DNA of 64,000 nt from the NCBI GenBank assembly GCA_030649165.1, contig JAUSGG010000024.1:7005-71004 (forward strand), in the 5' to 3' direction. Position 1 is the stretch's first letter. Every line of letters begins with the position of its first letter. The translations under genes and the position numbers were made by a program. Positions 32,104-40,856 of the stretch are shown piece by piece. The notes beneath the pieces were generated by a model. That model made no database searches, was not told where the DNA came from, and was given only the letters and a program-made list of their open reading frames with translations. The stretch is from Armatimonadota bacterium (lineage in GTDB: Bacteria; Armatimonadota; UBA5829; JAUSEB01).

Positions 32104-32140
32104 AACAGATCGGTCGGTGGTTGAAAGAGAAAGCAGTAGT

Positions 32141-34234
32141 ATGAAGCTTTCCGTGGAATGGTTGAAGGAATTCGTGGGCTTCGATTGCTCTATCGATGAG
32201 CTGGCGAAGTCCCTGACGATGGCCGGCCTCGAAGTTGAGGACATCGTTACCTACTCCCCCGACGAATTGGCGCGTCTGGGCGGAGGTCGTGAAGGGCCGT
32301 CCGGCCCGGTATTCGACGTCAAAGTTACCCCCAATAGAGGCGATTGGCTGTCCGTCATAGGCGTCGCGCGTGAAGCCGCGGCGATTCTTGCGACAAAGTT
32401 GACGGTCAGTGAGGCGACCGCCGAGGGCGCGCCGCCGCCCACGTCATCGGCCATCGAGGTGACCATCGTGGCTCCCGACTTGTGCCGCCGGTACGCCGCC
32501 GGACTCGTCAGAAACGTCACGATCAAGGAATCTCCCGACTGGCTCAGGAACCGGTTGATCATGGCCGGTATGCGCCCGATCAATAATATCGTGGACATTA
32601 CGAACTACGTAATGATCGAGTACGGCCAGCCTCTGCATGCGTTCGATTATCACCTGCTCAGAGGCGCGGAGATCATCGTGCGCCGCGCCGCGCCCGAAGA
32701 GGTAATGGCGACAATCGACGGTCAGCAGCGCGAGTTGTCCTCCGATATGCTGATGATAGCCGACCGGGACCGCGCCGTGGCCGTAGCGGGAGTGATGGGC
32801 GGGGCCGATACCGAAGTCGCTGAGACAACCAGGGACGTGTTGATCGAGTCCGCCAATTTCGATCCCGTTTCCATAAGGCGCACGTCCAAGACGCTGGGCC
32901 TTACCACCGAATCTTCCTATCGGTTTGAGCGGGCCGTGGACCCGTCAATCACGGTGGCGGCCCTCAAGCGGGCGGCGGAGCTGATGCGGGACCTCGCGGA
33001 CGGCGAGATCGCCGAAGGGGTAGTGGATGCCTACCCGGCCGAAATCCAGCCGCTGACAATCGAACTTCGTCCCGAACGTGCGAACAAATTGCTTGGTTGG
33101 AACATAGAACCGTGCGAAATGGCACAATTGTTGCAGCTACTTGGTATGTCTGTTCGCTTGAATAACCCCCTCCAAGTGACCGTGCCCACCTTCCGGTCGG
33201 ACATTACCGAGGAGATCGATCTCATAGAAGAGATCGCCAGGCTTCACGGTTTTGACAAGATCGAGACCACGCTGCCGGAGTCGCCTTCTCAAGGGCGGGA
33301 GTGCGAAGTCAACCTTTTCGAGGATCGCCTGAGACAGCTTCTTCTCAGGTGCGGCGCTCAGGAAGTAATGACTCACAGCATAGTAGACTCTTCGCTCGTG
33401 GAGAGAACGGGACTCGCCGAACGGGTCGTGCACATTCGGAATCCTCTCCGCGAAGACTTGAGCCGGCTCCGGGTGATGCTCATCCCCGGCCTTTTGGAAA
33501 CGCTGTCGAGAAACGCGGCCTTTGGGGCCAAAGACTTAGCCATTTTTGAGATCGGGCGCGTCTATCATTATGGACGAGATGGCCTGATTGCGCAGAATAG
33601 ATCTGTCGCCGGGGCCTTGATCGGTTCGCAGTGGGCCGGCGCGTGGAACCTGGACAGGTCCGCGCTGGAGGCGGACTTCTATCTGTGCAAGGGTGTCGTA
33701 GACGCTTTGCTGGATTCTCTGGAGATTCGGGAGCGTGAATACACCGCTGCCCAATCGCCGCTTCTGCATCCGACCAGATCGGCCGTCGTGCGGAGCGGAG
33801 GAGCGGAGATCGGCATACTCGGCGAAGTCGAAGCGTCCGTGCGGGAGTCGTTCGACCTTCGTGGACGACCGTACGTCTTCGAGCTCGATTTCGAGACTTT
33901 AAGGTTTCAAGCGGGGCGTCGGAGAGTATACCGTCCGGTAGCTCGGTATCCGGCGATATACCGCGATCTGTCCGTCGTCGTCGATGAGGACAGGCCGTAC
34001 GCCGAGGTCAGGAATGCTATCTCGGAAGCCGGCGGCGAATGGATAGAGCGCGTAGAGCTTCGTGAGGTTTATACGGGACGGCCGTTGAGTCCCGGACAGA
34101 AAAGCCTGCTGTTGTCGCTGGCTTTCCGGTCGGTCGAGCGCACGCTGACGGACCAGATCGTGAACGATCAGATGGCCCGGATAAAAGATCGACTGACGGC
34201 GGAATTGTCGGCGGCTATTAGAGGCGCAGAATAG
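32141..34234 (+). CDS. pheT: Phenylalanyl-tRNA synthetase beta subunit (short form)
   Basis: Motifs TPNRGDWLS, INNIVDITNY..GQPLHAFD, DLIEEIAR and an FDX-ACB C-terminus. Confidence 0.97.
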   Translation: MKLSVEWLKEFVGFDCSIDELAKSLTMAGLEVEDIVTYSPDELARLGGGREGPSGPVFDVKVTPNRGDWLSVIGVAREAAAILATKLTVSEATAEGAPPPTSSAIEVTIVAPDLCRRYAAGLVRNVTIKESPDWLRNRLIMAGMRPINNIVDITNYVMIEYGQPLHAFDYHLLRGAEIIVRRAAPEEVMATIDGQQRELSSDMLMIADRDRAVAVAGVMGGADTEVAETTRDVLIESANFDPVSIRRTSKTLGLTTESSYRFERAVDPSITVAALKRAAELMRDLADGEIAEGVVDAYPAEIQPLTIELRPERANKLLGWNIEPCEMAQLLQLLGMSVRLNNPLQVTVPTFRSDITEEIDLIEEIARLHGFDKIETTLPESPSQGRECEVNLFEDRLRQLLLRCGAQEVMTHSIVDSSLVERTGLAERVVHIRNPLREDLSRLRVMLIPGLLETLSRNAAFGAKDLAIFEIGRVYHYGRDGLIAQNRSVAGALIGSQWAGAWNLDRSALEADFYLCKGVVDALLDSLEIREREYTAAQSPLLHPTRSAVVRSGGAEIGILGEVEASVRESFDLRGRPYVFELDFETLRFQAGRRRVYRPVARYPAIYRDLSVVVDEDRPYAEVRNAISEAGGEWIERVELREVYTGRPLSPGQKSLLLSLAFRSVERTLTDQIVNDQMARIKDRLTAELSAAIRGAE

Positions 34235-34251
34235 GAAAGGAGAGGGTGTAG

Positions 34252-34899
34252 TTGACGGACGAAAAGCGCGCTGATCTGCGGGAGATCGAATCCGCAATAT
34301 GTCAGCTCCGAGACATCGCCTCCGCGAAGGTCATTGGCGGACCGACCGGAGCGATCGAGGAGATACACGTGTTGACGGAATCGTCTCGCCCGCCCAAACA
34401 GATTGTGAGGGACATCGAATCCGCGCTCATGGCAAAACTGGGCGTTCAGATCGACCACAAGAAAATAAGCATAGCGCAGGTTCAGGGCAATCAGAAACCG
34501 GAACGTCGCCGGCTCAGGTTTTCGGATGTCGCAATATCGGTGAATGGAAACCGCGCGGATGCCACCGTTCATCTGTCTAACGATGGGACGGTTTATACCG
34601 GAACCTCCGATGGCCACAGCTCGGCGCACAGCCAACTGCGTCTGATTGCTACCGCGACGCTGCGGGCCGTTGAGAATTCCGGCGCCGCGGACGGAACTAT
34701 GGTAGTCGAGGACCTCAGCGCCGGCACCGTGCTGGCCGGTAAGACGATTGTCGTGGTCGTGACCAATATGATCACCGATCGTGGCGAGGATCTCTTGTCG
34801 GGATCCTGCGTAGTCAAGCAAGACCTTTGGAAGGCGGTGGTGAACGCGACGCTGGACGCAGTCAACCGGCGTTTGTCGGTCGCGTCAATAGAAGATTAG
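34252..34899 (+). CDS. Conserved hypothetical protein with LeuA-allosteric-like C-terminal domain
   Basis: RBS GGAGAGG; IEEIHVL..PKQIVRDIES; C-terminal ATVxL..G..DLWKAVVNATLDAVNR. Confidence 0.7.
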   Translation: MTDEKRADLREIESAICQLRDIASAKVIGGPTGAIEEIHVLTESSRPPKQIVRDIESALMAKLGVQIDHKKISIAQVQGNQKPERRRLRFSDVAISVNGNRADATVHLSNDGTVYTGTSDGHSSAHSQLRLIATATLRAVENSGAADGTMVVEDLSAGTVLAGKTIVVVVTNMITDRGEDLLSGSCVVKQDLWKAVVNATLDAVNRRLSVASIED

Positions 34900-35013
34900 T
34901 CATCAGATATGGATCGGCGGCTTGGCGAGACGAGCGATGTAACACCCCGAGCGGAGCGATAGACAGCCTGTCGAGCGGCACAGGTATGTTACTCGCGAAA
35001 GGGGTTGAAAGAC

Positions 35014-35100
35014 GTGAAGACGTTAGTCAAGGCAATGTTGGCAATAGCCACGCTAGGACTCACCTGCGGCGCTATCTGGCACATCTGGCCTCCGGCCTAG
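35014..35100 (+). CDS. Unannotated 28-aa peptide MKTLVKAMLAIATLGLTCGAIWHIWPPA
   Basis: RBS AAAGGGG ~9 nt before the GTG; basic N-terminus, hydrophobic core, Cys/Trp-containing tail; below the ORF-track length cutoff. Confidence 0.65.
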   Translation: MKTLVKAMLAIATLGLTCGAIWHIWPPA

Positions 35101-35314
35101 TACGTGAAACGTGCAAGCTGAAAACGCAGGTGTTCAGCTAGTTGAGATAGATCAACCCGAGCCGTCGGTCCATAATATATACATCGCCCACATTTTCACC
35201 GGGGCGGCATGCTCCCGCGGATATGGCATAATTACTTAGTAGTTGCGTCCCGCGGTTTCCGGCTTGTCTGTCAGGTAGTAGCAGGCGCGGTTGAACACCT
35301 GAGGAGAATAGACC

Positions 35315-36880
35315 GTGCAACAGCAGTACAGGGCTTACAGAATATTCAGAATCGTGATCATCGGGCTTTGTGTGACGATGGCTATCCCGACGGTCATGAT
35401 CTGCCAGAGTACACATGTCCCCTGGTCTCAACTACTTTTTCTGATCGCGATCGCCACGCTGTGCGAATTGGCCCCGGTAGCCCTTGGCGCTAACTACGCG
35501 GAAGTTACGCTCACCCTGCCCCTCGTGATCATGGTGATGCTCGTCTACGGGACGCTGCCGGTCATCATACTCGGCCCCTCGGCGTTTATCCTCGCGAGCG
35601 CGCTTGGCTGGTCCAGCGCGCTTCTGTCACATAGGTTTACGGTGCCTTCCACACAGCGCACCGGCTTGAGCAGCCGACTGCGAGCGCTGATCTTCAACGT
35701 GATTCTGGCGTGGGTCGGACGTCCGTGGGTTGGGAGGCATTCGGGCTCTTTTGGCTGGGTGATCTTGAGTGTCCTGTACAACGCATCCCATTTGTGTCTG
35801 AACATCGTCTTTGCATCTCTCGTATATACGCTGGCCGGCGGCGCGCTATTGGGATCGCCCGCAATCTCTGAACTCAGGACATTGGGATGGGTCCAGACCA
35901 TAGCGGCCGCGGTGGCCGCCATGACCGTCTTCTTTGCGAGCGACGCGGGGATATACGGCGTCGCCACCGCGTTGTACGAGAGCCTTCCCGCCTACACCAG
36001 GACCTTGGGCGGGTTCGTCCTCAGATGCCAAATGTTGTTCCGCCAGACTATCGCTTCGGTGTACAAGAGCGACGTAGTGCTTACGGTCCTGGGAGCGGTC
36101 CTGACATTCTTGTACCTCAGGATCGGTACGACGGCGGTTATCGTCTTGTTTGGTTCGCTTTACATGATCCGCGACGCGATCCGGCAAACTTTCCAACAGA
36201 TTCAGACTTATCGAGATACGGTCACCACGCTCGGAACGTATATGCAGCGTTACCACCCGTACACCAGAGGCCATCTGAAGCGGGTTGCCGACCTGAGCGA
36301 GCGCCTGGCCAAGGAGCTGAGACTCCCTTTGGAGTCGGTCATGATGATGCCGGACGCGGGAATGCTCCACGACATCGGCAAGGTCGGCGTCAGCGAAGAC
36401 ATACTCGACAAAGTGGGAAAGCTGACGGACGACGAATGGACGGTGATCAAGCAGCACCCTGTGAAGGGCGCTGAGATAGTCAGTCATCTGCCGTTTCTGG
36501 ACAAGATCGTCGACTGGGTCAAGTACCACCACAAGTGGGCGGACGGAACGGGGTACCCCGACGACGGCAAGAAGGACGGCCAGATACCGATCGAAGCCAC
36601 CATCATTGCAGTCGCCGACGCCTTCGACGCGATGACGGACGACCGCGACCTCTCCGTCGATTGGCAGTGCGATACCTGCGGGCACAGGCCGGACGATGGG
36701 GGCCGGCCGGAATTTTGCCCCCAGTGTGGTGTGGAGAAGAAAAGAGTGTACCGGGAGCCGCTGAGTTTGAACGACGCCATAGACCAGCTCAGACGGGGAG
36801 CCGGCTCGCAGTTTTCGCCCAGGGTAGTCAAAGCCTTTCTGCGGATGCTGGAAAGAGATGGGGTGCACATAGATGGATAA
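35315..36880 (+). CDS. Multi-TM sensor HD-GYP phosphodiesterase with rubredoxin-like insert
   Basis: Polytopic N-terminus; YTRGH, LHDIGK, HHKWADGTGYP and VADAFDAM; CxxC..CPxCG insert. Confidence 0.9.
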   Translation: MQQQYRAYRIFRIVIIGLCVTMAIPTVMICQSTHVPWSQLLFLIAIATLCELAPVALGANYAEVTLTLPLVIMVMLVYGTLPVIILGPSAFILASALGWSSALLSHRFTVPSTQRTGLSSRLRALIFNVILAWVGRPWVGRHSGSFGWVILSVLYNASHLCLNIVFASLVYTLAGGALLGSPAISELRTLGWVQTIAAAVAAMTVFFASDAGIYGVATALYESLPAYTRTLGGFVLRCQMLFRQTIASVYKSDVVLTVLGAVLTFLYLRIGTTAVIVLFGSLYMIRDAIRQTFQQIQTYRDTVTTLGTYMQRYHPYTRGHLKRVADLSERLAKELRLPLESVMMMPDAGMLHDIGKVGVSEDILDKVGKLTDDEWTVIKQHPVKGAEIVSHLPFLDKIVDWVKYHHKWADGTGYPDDGKKDGQIPIEATIIAVADAFDAMTDDRDLSVDWQCDTCGHRPDDGGRPEFCPQCGVEKKRVYREPLSLNDAIDQLRRGAGSQFSPRVVKAFLRMLERDGVHIDG

Positions 36881-37559
36881 TCACATCGTCGTAGACCTCC
36901 CGGCGATCGTTGCGATTATCGCCGCGGCGATGATAACGATCGGAAGCGCTTACTGGTCAAGAATGGCTCTGCCGAGACAGATCGACCAGGCGTATCGCGC
37001 GTCGCTCCACGCCTTGGCCGCCGCGGTCGAAACCAAGGACTCGGGCACAGTGGGGCACGCTCGCAGAGTCGCCGACTATTCAGTTGCGATAGGACGGGAA
37101 CTCGGGCTGTCGCCGGCCGAGCTGCAGCGTATCGAACACGCGGCGCTTCTTCGCGACATTGGAAAGGTGAACATTCCCCACTCGCTGCTCAATAAGAGCG
37201 AGGCCCTTACCGAGGAAGAATTCGATATCATCAAGAGTCACTCTAAGATAGGCGCGGACATCGCTTCTCAAACGCCGTTTCTTGCCCGATGCGCCGACAT
37301 AATCACTCATCATCACGAGCGCTGGGACGGCAGCGGCTACCCGGCCGCCCTGCAGGGCGAGGACATTCCTCTGTCGGCCCGCATTGTCGCGGTCGCTAAC
37401 GACTACGACGCGATGACTTCGGACAGGCCGTACCACAAGGCTTTACGCGGACCTGCCGCCGCGCGTATAATCAGGGAAGGCGCGGCTGAGGCTTACGATC
37501 CCGCCGTCGTCGATATGTTTCTCAGGATACTGGAGAAAGAGGGGACCATTCTCACGTAA
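36873..37559 (+). CDS. Single-TM HD-GYP protein with degenerate HD motif (RD)
   Basis: TVGHARRV, LLRDIGK, HHERWDGSGYP, VANDYDAMTSDRPY. Confidence 0.9.
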   Translation: MDNHIVVDLPAIVAIIAAAMITIGSAYWSRMALPRQIDQAYRASLHALAAAVETKDSGTVGHARRVADYSVAIGRELGLSPAELQRIEHAALLRDIGKVNIPHSLLNKSEALTEEEFDIIKSHSKIGADIASQTPFLARCADIITHHHERWDGSGYPAALQGEDIPLSARIVAVANDYDAMTSDRPYHKALRGPAAARIIREGAAEAYDPAVVDMFLRILEKEGTILT

Positions 37560-38140
37560 TGATAGAGGCTATACTGCTGTCTCTCATCGTCGCGTACGTC
37601 AGGAAGGGCAATATCAGGCGTTTGGGCGAGCTGGACCTCCGCCACACCTGGCTGATCTTCGCTGCCGCTGTCTTCATTGGCCTCCTTTTCATCTTCACAA
37701 AGTACGTTCCAGGGATGGCGTTCCTGGGCAGGCTGACGTCGGTCTCGCACCTCGCCGCATATCTCGTAGCCCTTATAGTCATTGTGCTCAACCGCCGTTT
37801 GCCCGGAATGGCTCTCGTCGGGCTCGGAGCGGCGCTCAATTTTGCGGTTATTTCCGTCAACGGGGGCAAGATGCCGGTTTCGTACGAGGCGGCCAAGTAC
37901 GCCAATATGGAGAAGGCCCTGCGTAACGACCTCGTCCGTCATTGCAGGATCGACGAGAACACCCGACTGGCTGTTCTCGCCGACGTCATCCCGCTGAAAT
38001 GGCCGTCGTTTCACCCCGGGGTCATGAGCGTCGGCGATATCATTCTAGATGTCGGATTGTTCGTCCTTGTTCAGTACGGCGTCTGCCCGCGAAAGCGAAG
38101 CGTCAAGGAGCTTGTCGGGGGAGCAGATCCCGCCGGCTGA
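37559..38140 (+). CDS. DUF5317-family membrane protein
   Basis: Motifs GAALNFAVISVNGGKMPV and LADVI..SVGD; start overlaps the HD-GYP stop. Confidence 0.85.
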   Translation: MIEAILLSLIVAYVRKGNIRRLGELDLRHTWLIFAAAVFIGLLFIFTKYVPGMAFLGRLTSVSHLAAYLVALIVIVLNRRLPGMALVGLGAALNFAVISVNGGKMPVSYEAAKYANMEKALRNDLVRHCRIDENTRLAVLADVIPLKWPSFHPGVMSVGDIILDVGLFVLVQYGVCPRKRSVKELVGGADPAG

Positions 38141-38316
38141 CATTCTCCCTCTCCCTGGAAGGGAGAGGGAACGTGCTATTGTGAGCCGCCGTATTCCCCC
38201 TCTCCCTGGAAGGGAGAGGGCAGGGGTGAGGGTTGAAGTGATCTAACCTCCAACCTCTAACTTCTAACCTCTAAACCGGGGTGAGGGTTGAACCTACCGC
38301 TATGACCCGCTGACCT

Positions 38317-39969
38317 ATGCCAAAGAAACCTTCCCAACCTGATCGGGGCGACATCTACAGCTCGATCCTCCTCTTAATCCTCATCATCGGGCTCGCTCTA
38401 AGAATATGGGGGATCTTCTGGACCCTCCCCACGTCCGGTGGCTATTCCTATCACCCCGACGAGATTTTCCAGATCGCGTCCGCGGAGAAGATCGACCTGG
38501 GCGCGCTTAATCTGAACCCTCAGTTTTACAACTACGGCGCGATGTATATGTACCTGGTCAGCGCTCTCATGTCGCTCGGGGCGAGCGTTGGACTGACAAG
38601 TCGCCTTGTCCTGGTGGACTGGTATCTGATCGCCCGATTGCTGACAGCGCTCCTGGGCGCCGTGACACCATACCTGGTCTTTCTGACCGCATCGCGCCTG
38701 TTCGATCGCAAGGTCGGTCTTGCCGCCGCGCTTCTGGCCGCGATTACGCCCGTCGCGGTCGTTCACTCGCATTTCGCGACGGTCGACGCGCCGGCGACTT
38801 TCTGGGTGGCGGCCTGCCTCGCAACGTCGGCTCGGCTTGCGCGCGGGGCGTCGATCCGGTCCATCATATTCGCCGGCCTGTTCGCGGGATTCGCGGGAGC
38901 GACGAAGTACACGACGGCGATAGTCCTCATCGCCCCGCTCGTCGCATTGCTCGCGGAGCGCGAAGCGCCGTTCTCGAAGAAGCTGCCGCCCGTTGGGCTG
39001 GCGATTGCCGCGGCCCTCGCCGGCTTCGTAATCGGCAACCCCGGCTGCGTCCTCTGGGCCGACCAGTTCGGGAAGGGCTTTCTCTATGAGTTCTCCCACG
39101 CACGGCAGGGACACGGACTCGTCTTCGTGAACACCGGGCCCGGCTGGCTGTTCCACATTCGAAGCTCACTTCTGTACGGGTTGGGACTCCCGTATCTGCT
39201 GCTTTCTCTCGCCGGGCTGTGCGTGATCGCCCGGCAGCGGCGAAGGGAGAGTTGGTTCCTTCTGGCCTTCGCGCTCGTATACTTTGCCACGATCAGCCTG
39301 TCACCGGTCCGATTCGCCCGCTACGTGATCCCGCTTACACCAGTCCTGGCGATTACGGCGGCCGCCGCAATCGTGAACGGCTTCGACTCCATCGCCCGTC
39401 TCAGATGGGGAAGGCTCCGCGCCAGGCAGACCCTGCTGGTCTCCTGGCTCGTCGTCTGTGTAGGCGCGCTGTACTACACGCTCAGCTACTCGATGGCTCT
39501 TGACCGGCTGTTTGATGACAAGGACCCGCGGTTCGAGTCCGTTGCCTGGATCAAGGCCCACGTTCCAAAAGGCTCTGCGATTGCGCTGCCGACGAGGCCG
39601 TGGTTTTACAGCCCGGCGTTCAGCGAATGGTTCACGCATCCGCTGCCGGAGGAGCGTTTCCTCGGTTTGTCGAGGGTCAAGGATTACCGGCTGCTCGCAA
39701 ATCCGGATTTGGAATGGGACTCCGACCTGCTTCGCTCGGCGCGCCCGGACTATGTCGTCGTGTCGGATTACGAGGACCTGGACGCCGTGCGCGCCAAGGA
39801 CCCCGCCGCGCTGGAGTATCTGCGCATACTGCGCGCCCGCTACGCCGTCGCCGCGGTGATAGCGGATAGGCTGCGCGGAGGAGGTCTCGATTTCGGAACG
39901 CCCGAGCATTTGCCGCACGATCTCAAGTACGCGTCTCCGCGGCTGACGATATATAAGAGGCGGACCTGA
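38317..39969 (+). CDS. GT-C membrane glycosyltransferase (PMT/ArnT-like)
   Basis: HPDE loop, HSHFATVD, ATKY and RFARY; many TM segments. Confidence 0.85.
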   Translation: MPKKPSQPDRGDIYSSILLLILIIGLALRIWGIFWTLPTSGGYSYHPDEIFQIASAEKIDLGALNLNPQFYNYGAMYMYLVSALMSLGASVGLTSRLVLVDWYLIARLLTALLGAVTPYLVFLTASRLFDRKVGLAAALLAAITPVAVVHSHFATVDAPATFWVAACLATSARLARGASIRSIIFAGLFAGFAGATKYTTAIVLIAPLVALLAEREAPFSKKLPPVGLAIAAALAGFVIGNPGCVLWADQFGKGFLYEFSHARQGHGLVFVNTGPGWLFHIRSSLLYGLGLPYLLLSLAGLCVIARQRRRESWFLLAFALVYFATISLSPVRFARYVIPLTPVLAITAAAAIVNGFDSIARLRWGRLRARQTLLVSWLVVCVGALYYTLSYSMALDRLFDDKDPRFESVAWIKAHVPKGSAIALPTRPWFYSPAFSEWFTHPLPEERFLGLSRVKDYRLLANPDLEWDSDLLRSARPDYVVVSDYEDLDAVRAKDPAALEYLRILRARYAVAAVIADRLRGGGLDFGTPEHLPHDLKYASPRLTIYKRRT

Positions 39970-40856
39970 TGGACCGAATGGCCCAGCGGTTCCTCGATTA
40001 TCTACTGGTGGAGCGGGGGCTGTCGCGGAACACGATAGCCTCCTACGGACTGGATATCGCCCAGTTCATCGCGTACGCCGCCGGGCGCGACGTGGGATCG
40101 CCCCAGGCTCTGACCGAGGAGCTGATCCTGGGCTACACCGCATGGCTGCTCGAGAAGAACTACGCCGCCACCAGCGCCGCCCGCAAGTCCTCCGCCGTCA
40201 AAGGTCTCTGCAGGTTCCTCTATACCGAGAAAGCCATCGAGAAAGACATAGCCGCTGTCATCGAACACCCTCAGACGCCGAAAAGGCTGCCGGACACGCT
40301 TACGAGGGATGAAGTCATCTCGCTGCTGAGCCGGCCGGACGTCTCGACGGACGGCGGTCTGAGGGATCGCGCCATACTCGAAACGCTATATGCCACGGGC
40401 CTGCGGGTTTCCGAGCTCATCGGGCTGACCGTGGGCTCGGTCGATCTCGAAATCGGCTTCGTCCGATGCATAGGGAAAGGCTCGAAAGAACGCATAACGC
40501 CCATCGGTGAGATAGCCTCGGACTACGTCCGGCAATACGTGTCCCGATGCCGCCCCGCTTTGGTGGGAAGCGCGCGCGTGGACGGGCTGTTCCTGTCGCG
40601 CCGGGGGAAGCCCCTGTCCCGCGTTTCCATCTGGAAGCTGATCCGCAAGTACGCTCTCCAGGCGGGCATCACCAAGCCGCTCACGCCCCACACGCTGCGC
40701 CACTCGTTTGCGACACACCTGCTGGAAGGCGGCGCGGACATAAAGTCGATCCAGGAGATGCTCGGCCACGTCAGCATCGCCACAACGGAGATTTACACTC
40801 ACGTCAGCAGGGAGCAATTGAAGCGCGTGTACAGGGAGTCGCATCCACGGGCGTAG
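39969..40856 (+). CDS. xerD: Tyrosine recombinase XerD
   Basis: ERGLSRNTIASY, LYATGLRVSEL, GKGSKER, PHTLRHSFATHLL and LGHVSIATTEIYTH. Confidence 0.9.
   Translation: MDRMAQRFLDYLLVERGLSRNTIASYGLDIAQFIAYAAGRDVGSPQALTEELILGYTAWLLEKNYAATSAARKSSAVKGLCRFLYTEKAIEKDIAAVIEHPQTPKRLPDTLTRDEVISLLSRPDVSTDGGLRDRAILETLYATGLRVSELIGLTVGSVDLEIGFVRCIGKGSKERITPIGEIASDYVRQYVSRCRPALVGSARVDGLFLSRRGKPLSRVSIWKLIRKYALQAGITKPLTPHTLRHSFATHLLEGGADIKSIQEMLGHVSIATTEIYTHVSREQLKRVYRESHPRA

Follow-up and report, generated by a model that had tools for sequence, protein, structure and literature searches.

The 64,000-nt stretch of Armatimonadota DNA analyzed here (contig JAUSGG010000024.1, positions 7,005 to 71,004; hereafter the window) carries a conserved block in which a tiny gene missed by annotation, the micro-gene, lies within a structured RNA leader. 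The gene for a 215-residue protein, p215, stands before this leader, and genes for two membrane HD-GYP proteins (HD1 and HD2) and a DUF5317 protein follow it. Our preferred reading, to which we assign a probability of about 50%, is that the leader gates a membrane micro-protein acting with the HD-GYP sensor and DUF5317. A first-pass annotation of the same DNA had reported an open reading frame (ORF) with a ribosome-binding site at 35014–35100 ahead of three overlapping genes, and coordinates, Pfam matches and hydropathy confirmed this arrangement; the structured RNA around the ORF and the conserved p215 had escaped it.

Gap between p215 and HD1, 415 nt: holds the RNA leader and the micro-gene
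35014..35100 (+): micro-gene, 28 codons, GTG start, TAG stop, encoding MKTLVKAMLAIATLGLTCGAIWHIWPPA

The GTG start lies 9 nt behind a Shine-Dalgarno (SD) sequence, GGGG, at 35001–35004; an alternative in-frame TTG at 35005 would yield 31 aa, but without spacing to the SD. While the product matched no family in Pfam or NCBIfam, comparison among relatives was informative. We fetched 20 DUF5317 loci for synteny, drawn from the 25 of 41 related genomes that carry DUF5317, and found a 28–32-codon ORF behind GAAAGGGG in 13 of 13 syntenic intergenic gaps. An exact pattern from the conserved leader, searched across 401 genomes of the phylum, matched once per genome in 29 of them and gave no control matches. 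All matches were confined to four families of the window's class, and in each of the 29 genomes the micro-gene followed the pattern, starting with ATG in 27 cases and with GTG and TTG in one each. Mean pairwise differences at its first, second and third codon positions were 0.35, 0.19 and 0.62, and the median pairwise ratio of nonsynonymous to synonymous substitution rates (dN/dS) was 0.19 in frame, compared with 1.18 and 3.9 in the two shifted frames. A peptide-alignment search of 1.84 billion representatives returned 23 matches at E ≤ 1e-3, about 20 of them tiny proteins of the family. The codon statistics indicate that 35014–35100 is a genuine gene under purifying selection.

To place the block in a wider context, species-representative genomes were scanned with the p215 alignment, giving 416 relatives, of which the best 80 loci were analyzed. 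These came from several classes of Armatimonadota and from Bacillota, Chloroflexota and Zixibacteria; the Bacillota carriers include Symbiobacterium (S. thermophilum), Thermincola (T. ferriacetica), Phosphitispora, Syntrophomonadaceae and Thermosediminibacterales. Small ORFs, located by an iterated peptide profile and three lineage-specific patterns, directly followed p215 in 73 of the 80 loci (Armatimonadota, Bacillota and Chloroflexota). Three of the seven loci lacking one break off no more than about 200 nt past p215, and the other four are Zixibacteria loci that also lack an HD-GYP gene. An HD-GYP gene followed in 69 of the 73 ORF-holding loci, the other four being truncated or decayed. 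The scans bear out the earlier proposal that a small ORF is conserved at homologous loci (13/13 gaps, 29/29 genomes, 73/80 loci). The proposed link to a membrane HD-GYP protein and to DUF5317 is supported as well: the HD-GYP gene follows with the regularity just given, and DUF5317 is linked through co-occurrence.

Among the 20 synteny loci, the full order pheT–p215–gap–HD1–HD2–DUF5317–PMT was found in 13, with one more in frameshifted pieces; three were cut by contig ends, and in three members of a single genus only DUF5317, PMT and xerD were seen. Of the 41 relatives, 26 carry p215, 25 carry DUF5317 and 23 show the leader pattern; in the two genomes with DUF5317 but no leader pattern the gene lies at a contig end. 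Both DUF5317 and the leader pattern are missing from sixteen relatives, 14 of which are without p215 as well. A single genus is split, with three members carrying the block and four not, and in another the pheT/p215/ORF/HD1 part and the DUF5317/PMT/xerD part sit on different contigs. Gains and losses affect the block as a whole; its constant core consists of p215, the leader that holds the micro-gene, and a MASE9-like HD-GYP protein, and the second HD-GYP protein and DUF5317 are optional.

The encoded peptides fall into the following forms:

Window's order, 27–32 aa: M-(K/S)-(R/T)-L-x-K-V-L-..-T-(C/A/S)-G-(A/S)-x-W-x-x-W-P-P-(P/R/K)
Bacillota and Chloroflexota, 25–26 aa: ending in A-G-G-A-x-(F/W)-x-(W/Y/I)-x
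Chthonomonadia-type, 38–39 aa: Pro-rich tail
Fimbriimonadia-type, 41–47 aa: A-S-A, then a charged tail
Clade including Capsulimonadaceae, 25–32 aa: amphipathic, MNTVSKMIKTLSSAI-x-GCG-..-HWPP-(D/E)

Their N-terminus is basic, the distance from the initial Met to the small-residue motif is constant, and conservation of the helix equals or exceeds that of the tail. The median of the best 15-residue hydropathy was 2.19 in the main group versus 1.13 in the amphipathic form, which is restricted to one clade of 17 loci. The position occupied by Cys in the window varies by lineage: families f1 and f3 have Cys there, f5 has Ser, f2 has Ala, and Bacillota and Chloroflexota have Gly. In the window, the Thr-Cys-Gly codons (CACCTGCG, 35061–35068) are exactly complementary to CGCAGGTG (35125–35132), 25 nt past the stop, so that the Cys codon may be partly under RNA constraint. 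This 8-bp helix recurs in shorter form in some f3 loci; as a general feature we rejected it, given that it is the best helix in few of the 29 loci and that most best helices are at shuffle level.

In AgrD, a Cys (or Ser) forms a (thio)lactone ring with the C-terminal residue, and AgrB removes a charged tail. The first-pass annotation had seen an Agr-like Cys core here and, correctly, no acidic tail: the ORF ends 7–10 residues past the Cys position with WPP(P/R/K/A). The core itself did not survive comparison, since Ala, Ser or Gly replaces the lineage-specific Cys elsewhere and no charged C-terminal tail is present; with Ala or Gly at that position, no (thio)lactone ring is possible. AgrB (PF04647) had no match in genome G000, which is 99.3% complete, but the control genomes all stayed below the cut-off too, and AgrD (PF05931) matched nowhere, with the controls likewise silent. 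We therefore discarded an Agr-type thiolactone autoinducer, given the non-conserved Cys, the missing charged tail and the amphipathic clade.

The same annotation had taken the peptide to be secreted. Signal peptidase I substrates have n-, h- and c-regions, carry small residues at both –3 and –1 and lack Pro at +1, and a Sec-type pre-peptide—cut at the small-residue site to release a short aromatic C-terminal peptide that the membrane HD-GYP protein senses from outside—would account for the n-h-c shape of most lineages, for the invariably small –3/–1 residues (C, A, S or G at the first place, G at the second, A or S at the third) and for Fimbriimonadia-type forms, in which a textbook A-S-A precedes a charged tail at least 20 residues long. 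However, the product would measure just 4–6 residues in Bacillota, Pro follows the A-G-A site in many f2 sequences, the amphipathic clade has no h-region, and no exporter or peptidase gene accompanies the block. Together with a helix no less conserved than the tail, this makes secretion, in our view, very unlikely.

Peptide form and DUF5317 go together. All 29 genomes with a short hydrophobic peptide carry DUF5317 (26 in the locus, three elsewhere in the genome), and the 26 loci with DUF5317 in place all encode short (25–30 aa), strongly hydrophobic peptides, whereas none of the seven genomes with amphipathic, interrupted or long-tailed peptides has a DUF5317 match; the association amounts to about five lineage-level contrasts rather than independent counts. 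Thus, DUF5317 is unnecessary for the micro-gene, yet accompanies its short membrane-type form. That DUF5317 serves as a general processing step, as the first-pass annotation had it, is not supported: seven genomes keep the micro-gene without it, and its predicted model matches no peptidase fold.

The RNA surrounding the micro-gene comprises the following elements:

34908..35174 (+): whole RNA leader, about 267 nt, bounded by the two P1 arms (alignments, RNAalifold and pair counts)
34908..34925 (+): P1 5′ arm, TATGGATCGGCGGCTTGG, pairing with 35157–35174
34944..34948 (+): anti-SD, ACCCC, the P2 5′ strand, pairing with GGGGT at 35001–35005
34946..34958 (+): invariant block, CCCGAGCGGAGCG, with tandem AGCG motifs
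34963..34989 (+): P3 hairpin with covarying stems; loop CGAGCGGC (34972–34979) with an invariant AGCG
34996..35008 (+): SD block, CGAAAGGGGTTGA, containing the SD and the P2 3′ strand; invariant in the alignments
35157..35174 (+): P1 3′ arm, CCGAGCCGTCGGTCCATA, about 56 nt past the micro-gene stop

In the alignments, the leader upstream of the micro-gene was more conserved than the micro-gene itself. RNAalifold predicted a long-range helix, P1, joining the 5′ and 3′ ends of the leader; a second helix, P2, in which the CCC of an invariant CCCGAGCG(A/G)AGCG block pairs with the GGG of the SD; and a hairpin, P3, between the P2 strands with AGCG in its loop. Over 13 sequences, 94% of cells were paired and 17 of 27 pairs had changed on both sides, including 8 of 13 in P1 and 9 of 9 in P3. 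None of 500 shuffles reached these values, and sliding the alignment by 1–3 columns lowered the pairing to 28–44%. A direct search recovered P1 in all 29 loci, at 9–31 bp. In the wider set, 72 of 73 loci had a P1 helix of 9 bp or more, with 58 distinct sequences for the 5′ arm, and its score beat the best of 20 shuffles in 57 of the 73. Anti-SD and SD paired in 27 of 27 sequences scored, and their variants change together (AACCC/GGGTT, ACCTC/GAGGT, TCTCCC/GGGAGG). Across 28 leaders from three phyla, the two AGCG motifs, located in the internal loop and the P3 loop, and the G residues of the SD were the only invariant nucleotides. These comparative data show that the leader is a structured RNA with covarying P1 and P3 and with its SD paired to the anti-SD; the repeated single-stranded AGCG motifs look like protein-binding sites.

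A search of Rfam 15, including the cyclic di-GMP (c-di-GMP) I and II riboswitches, gave no relevant match at E ≤ 1 over 34000–38400 or at E ≤ 10 over 34890–35320, nor at E ≤ 1 in the intergenic regions of seven distant loci. On this basis, with no Rfam match in the window or the seven distant loci, we rejected a c-di-GMP-II riboswitch identity for the leader.

Individual leader loci depart from the common plan. The 31 contiguous bp of P1 occur at L150/L057 (G011:C344), where about 440 nt extra separate leader and HD1. At L098 (5140–5290; Armatimonadales), some seven 21-nt tandem repeats lie between the leader and the HD-GYP gene, one frame of which reads (MLGKLL)n. At L157 (G018:C97, 2395–2773), the P2/P3 part of the leader is lost, Pro, Asn and Asp interrupt the peptide helix, tandem repeats of about 25 nt follow the leader and the genome has no DUF5317 match; this locus looks like a decaying copy of the block.

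The position of the micro-gene relative to P1 bears on our main rival explanation, a cis-acting leader ORF. Here, translation of the micro-gene itself would matter, perhaps with nascent-chain arrest at the aromatic/Pro-rich end, and a ribosome near the stop would block P1 or a terminator and so set read-through or translation of the HD-GYP operon, without any role of the peptide in trans. We hold this to be a serious if minority possibility. The micro-gene is enclosed by P1, and in 13 Bacillota and Chloroflexota loci its stop codon lies 1–37 nt from the P1 3′ arm (≤14 nt in 8 of the 13), which is closely followed by a T-rich run and then by the HD-GYP start. Moreover, the peptide ends in WPP(P/R/K)-stop in the window's order and in aromatic-x(-x)-stop in Bacillota, and its Met-to-motif length is constant. 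In the window's order, however, the stop stands 35–75 nt from the 3′ arm, and P1 and HD1 are about 140 nt apart, a stretch that holds a conserved GGCATAAT box. The peptide is also under selection over its full length, its hydrophobic helix with conserved small residues included, which is unusual for arrest peptides, and the peptide type covaries with DUF5317, a protein rather than an RNA feature. Finally, a scan of 34700–35400 detected no terminator-like site and no plus-strand promoter. The GGCATAAT box (35213–35230), which lies past the P1 3′ arm and ahead of the HD1 start and is aligned in L028, L031, L034 and L037, may be a –10-like element giving HD1 its own promoter; the simple promoter scan made no call there. 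The cis-acting leader mechanism and the membrane micro-protein could also act together.

The occluded SD is reminiscent of type I toxin genes as well. hok-type mRNAs are silenced by 5′–3′ fold-back pairing and SD sequestration, and type I toxin–antitoxin systems feature an antisense or overlapping small RNA and a patchy, often multicopy distribution. A hydrophobic peptide of 25–30 residues, encoded on an mRNA whose ends pair over a long range, resembles such toxins, and the scan of 34700–35400 did pick up one weak minus-strand promoter-like site (35199–35172; 1 found, 0.5 expected). Yet the micro-gene is single-copy (29 of 29 genomes), is flanked by the same two genes across three phyla and is kept or lost together with its neighbors; amphipathic and long-tailed variants exist, and the alignments revealed no conserved antisense element. 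A toxin-like gene silenced by 5′–3′ fold-back and SD sequestration is, to our minds, the most improbable of the explanations considered.

The leader and micro-gene are embedded in this gene order:

32117–34234: pheT, the gene preceding p215
34252..34899 (+): p215, a cytoplasmic protein of 215 aa that matches no family in Pfam or NCBIfam
35315..36880 (+): HD1, a MASE9-like polytopic membrane domain (residues 1–300), then an HD-GYP domain
36873..37559 (+): HD2, one transmembrane helix, then a canonical HD-GYP domain; 8-nt overlap with HD1
37559..38140 (+): DUF5317, a membrane protein; 1-nt overlap with HD2
38317–39969: PMT_2-type glycosyltransferase gene, downstream of DUF5317
39969–40856: xerD-like gene, after the PMT_2-type gene

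Both HD-GYP proteins matched Pfam HD_5 well above its cut-off of 27.2 bits (HD1, 1.6e-29, 103 bits; HD2, 1.2e-43, 149 bits). Hydropathy gave at least seven hydrophobic segments within residues 1–272 of HD1, one in HD2 and four in DUF5317. The membrane part of HD1 resembles MASE9, with an Atlas feature score of 0.90 and MASE9-named structures at TM 0.63–0.69, and there was no PF20972 match at E ≤ 0.01. The HD-GYP signature has been given as HD plus HHExh(D/N)GxGYP, and those who defined MASE9 proposed ligand binding within the membrane (both from the consulted part of the preprint 10.1101/2021.11.05.467447). HD1 retains HD, HH and GYP, and carries HHK in 12 of 14 orthologs and HHE in two; with HHK in place of HHE, it is a variant HD-GYP protein. 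The same 12 orthologs have a CxxC..CxxC insert within their HD-GYP domain (residues 449–476 of the window's HD1, 36659–36742), which resembles a zinc ribbon or rubredoxin through weak sub-threshold Pfam and NCBIfam matches. In HD2, the motif HHERWDGSGYP is canonical, and the nearest solved chains are 5z7c (1.3e-37) and 4mcw (7.9e-36), a cyclic GMP-AMP (cGAMP) phosphodiesterase and PmGH. By profile, both proteins are judged to contain HD-GYP domains and are thus putative phosphodiesterases, with the motif of HD2 canonical. In locus L046 (G026:C77, 4997–6418), a 1.4-kb insertion separates HD2 from DUF5317.

DUF5317 (PF17248) was recognized at 3.6e-37 and 128.1 bits against a cut-off of 25, as were 20 of 20 aligned homologs. 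Its predicted model has a predicted local distance difference test score (pLDDT) of 91. Certain Asn and Asp residues of the protein are invariant, the latter in two invariant motifs, L-x-D and S-x-G-D. We take these Asp motifs to resemble those of aspartyl intramembrane and signal peptidases, a likeness that neither Pfam nor the fold searches supported: Foldseek returned no match at E ≤ 0.001 (the lipoprotein signal peptidase 6ryp reached only E 5.1, TM 0.22–0.25), a wide VIA search gave generic helical matches alone (Z ≤ 8), and no peptidase family was among the weak Pfam hits. On these searches we did not adopt a peptidase identity for DUF5317, nor the idea that it is a free-standing copy of HD1's membrane domain, for which BLASTP found nothing (best E 7.1). 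Co-folding of the peptide with HD1 residues 1–300 and DUF5317 scored 0.01 against a mark of 0.32, a result that is neutral on binding.

The predicted p215 model (pLDDT 83) has two domains. In VIA, residues 3–76 look like the C-terminal subdomain found in adenylating enzymes (5gxd; Z 9.4, 71 aligned residues, root-mean-square deviation (rmsd) 2.4), and residues 86–209 the regulatory domain of LeuA/citramalate/isopropylmalate synthases (3f6g; Z 9.3, 109 aligned, rmsd 3.2). Foldseek added 3hpz (E 1.2e-5) and 3f6h_B (TMt 0.62), and residues 80–211 match ORFs of 427–484 aa in relatives at 29–37% identity. The modeled folds point to small-molecule binding.

Immediately 3′ of the DUF5317 stop, at 38142–38220, a 28-nt unit occurs twice, each copy forming a perfect 10–11-bp palindromic hairpin (CCCTCTCCCT-GGA-AGGGAGAGGG), and additional short direct repeats follow at 38223–38292. 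The hairpin pair could be a terminator pair or an element like the repetitive extragenic palindromes. At the other end of the block, the region upstream of p215 in several Bacillota loci (L140, 2662–3002; L152, 2816–3137; L153, 2882–3259; L141, 335–683) shows sub-threshold matches to the cspA thermoregulator model, at 53–70 bits where the gathering score is 78; a cold-shock gene leader probably adjoins the block there.

Under the reading that we prefer, in which the leader gates a membrane micro-protein, the leader would hold the micro-gene untranslated until P2 opens. Candidates for the opener are a protein reading the AGCG motifs—p215 being the only constant neighbor besides the HD-GYP protein—or a small ligand. 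The product of about 25–30 residues would place its basic N-terminus inside, span the membrane with one hydrophobic helix and expose its aromatic/Pro-rich end at the outer face. It would remain in the membrane and, together with DUF5317, would act on the HD-GYP enzyme's MASE9-like sensor, itself embedded in the membrane, thereby setting cyclic-dinucleotide hydrolysis.

Several observations weigh against this proposal. The five P2 and P2a pairs showed no compensatory change in the 13-sequence set, three of them being invariant; with no compensation within the order, support for P2 comes from cross-phylum variants alone, and several of the short anti-SD:SD variants are individually not significant. 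The distance from stop to P1 in Bacillota and Chloroflexota fits a cis-acting leader ORF as well or better. The best structural matches of p215 are ligand-binding or enzyme subdomains rather than an RNA-binding fold, and in the four Zixibacteria loci the p215 relatives are followed by other genes, with no AGCG-rich leader, which neither helps nor hurts the idea that p215 binds RNA. Given the 17 loci of the amphipathic clade, with their hydropathy of 1.13, a transmembrane role is not universal. Lastly, the related genomes are non-independent samples.

A bolder version, which we regard as doubtful, holds that the leader represents a new class of sensing RNA that gates an in-membrane peptide ligand for the MASE9 sensor, either as a riboswitch for a cyclic dinucleotide (or a breakdown product) or as a target of p215 through the AGCG motifs. 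If true, the input of the HD-GYP protein would be a genetically encoded micro-protein made on demand in the same cell, and RNA, peptide and enzyme would form a closed feedback loop on second-messenger levels from Armatimonadota to Bacillota. For most membrane HD-GYP enzymes, the whole MASE9 class included, the input signal is not known, and the block offers three conserved input candidates: the micro-protein, DUF5317 and the protein resembling the LeuA regulatory domain. To these it adds an RNA leader absent from Rfam, with helices backed by covariation, and it illustrates that a gene of 25–30 codons missed by annotation can rank among the most conserved parts of a signaling operon.

Among the papers that it listed, our literature search found no description of this leader, micro-protein family, block or DUF5317; individual features nevertheless have counterparts in known systems. 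TnaC, SecM and the erm leaders are leader- or arrest-peptide controls; the micro-gene is like them in being a small ORF within a structured leader, so that translating it could refold the RNA further downstream, and in its Trp and Pro codons close to the stop. Here, by contrast, the peptide is conserved over its whole length with a hydrophobic helix, and in the window's order the stop lies too far from P1 for direct ribosome occlusion. Agr precursors are similarly short with an N-terminal helix, and the window's peptide even has a Cys followed by Trp four residues later; they differ in that the Cys is not conserved here, no charged recognition tail is present and the partner is an HD-GYP protein rather than a histidine kinase. 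MgrB, a small single-pass membrane protein acting on the PhoQ sensor, is matched in size, in its one hydrophobic helix and basic N-terminus, and in the proposed action on the membrane domain of a signaling enzyme. The two are unrelated in sequence, however, and the micro-gene lies directly upstream of its presumed target, within a structured RNA, and across phyla.

Within c-di-GMP networks, the CD1980.2 family of Clostridioides difficile consists of 58-aa membrane-associated proteins encoded behind class I c-di-GMP riboswitches, as described in the part of PMC13724677 consulted. There, too, a structured RNA leader controls a tiny membrane-associated protein; going by the same text, that family is restricted to C. 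difficile, multicopy, 58 aa long and under a known riboswitch, whereas the micro-gene is single-copy, encodes 25–47 aa, extends across phyla and has a leader without an Rfam match. The closest studied relative is hdgA-hdgB of Streptomyces venezuelae, two tandem membrane HD-GYP genes whose mutants showed no developmental phenotype (PMC6205966, consulted in part); HdgA is the only studied MASE9 protein, its role not known according to the consulted part of the preprint 10.1101/2021.11.05.467447. We liken the two by published description. The text consulted makes no mention of a micro-gene, RNA leader, p215 or DUF5317 and describes the second Streptomyces protein as degenerate with six transmembrane helices; in our block, it is HD1 that is variant (HHK in 12 of 14) and HD2 that is canonical, with one helix. 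What the two systems share, as far as that description goes, is a pair of adjacent membrane HD-GYP genes, probably in one operon, of which the first encodes a MASE9-type polytopic domain.

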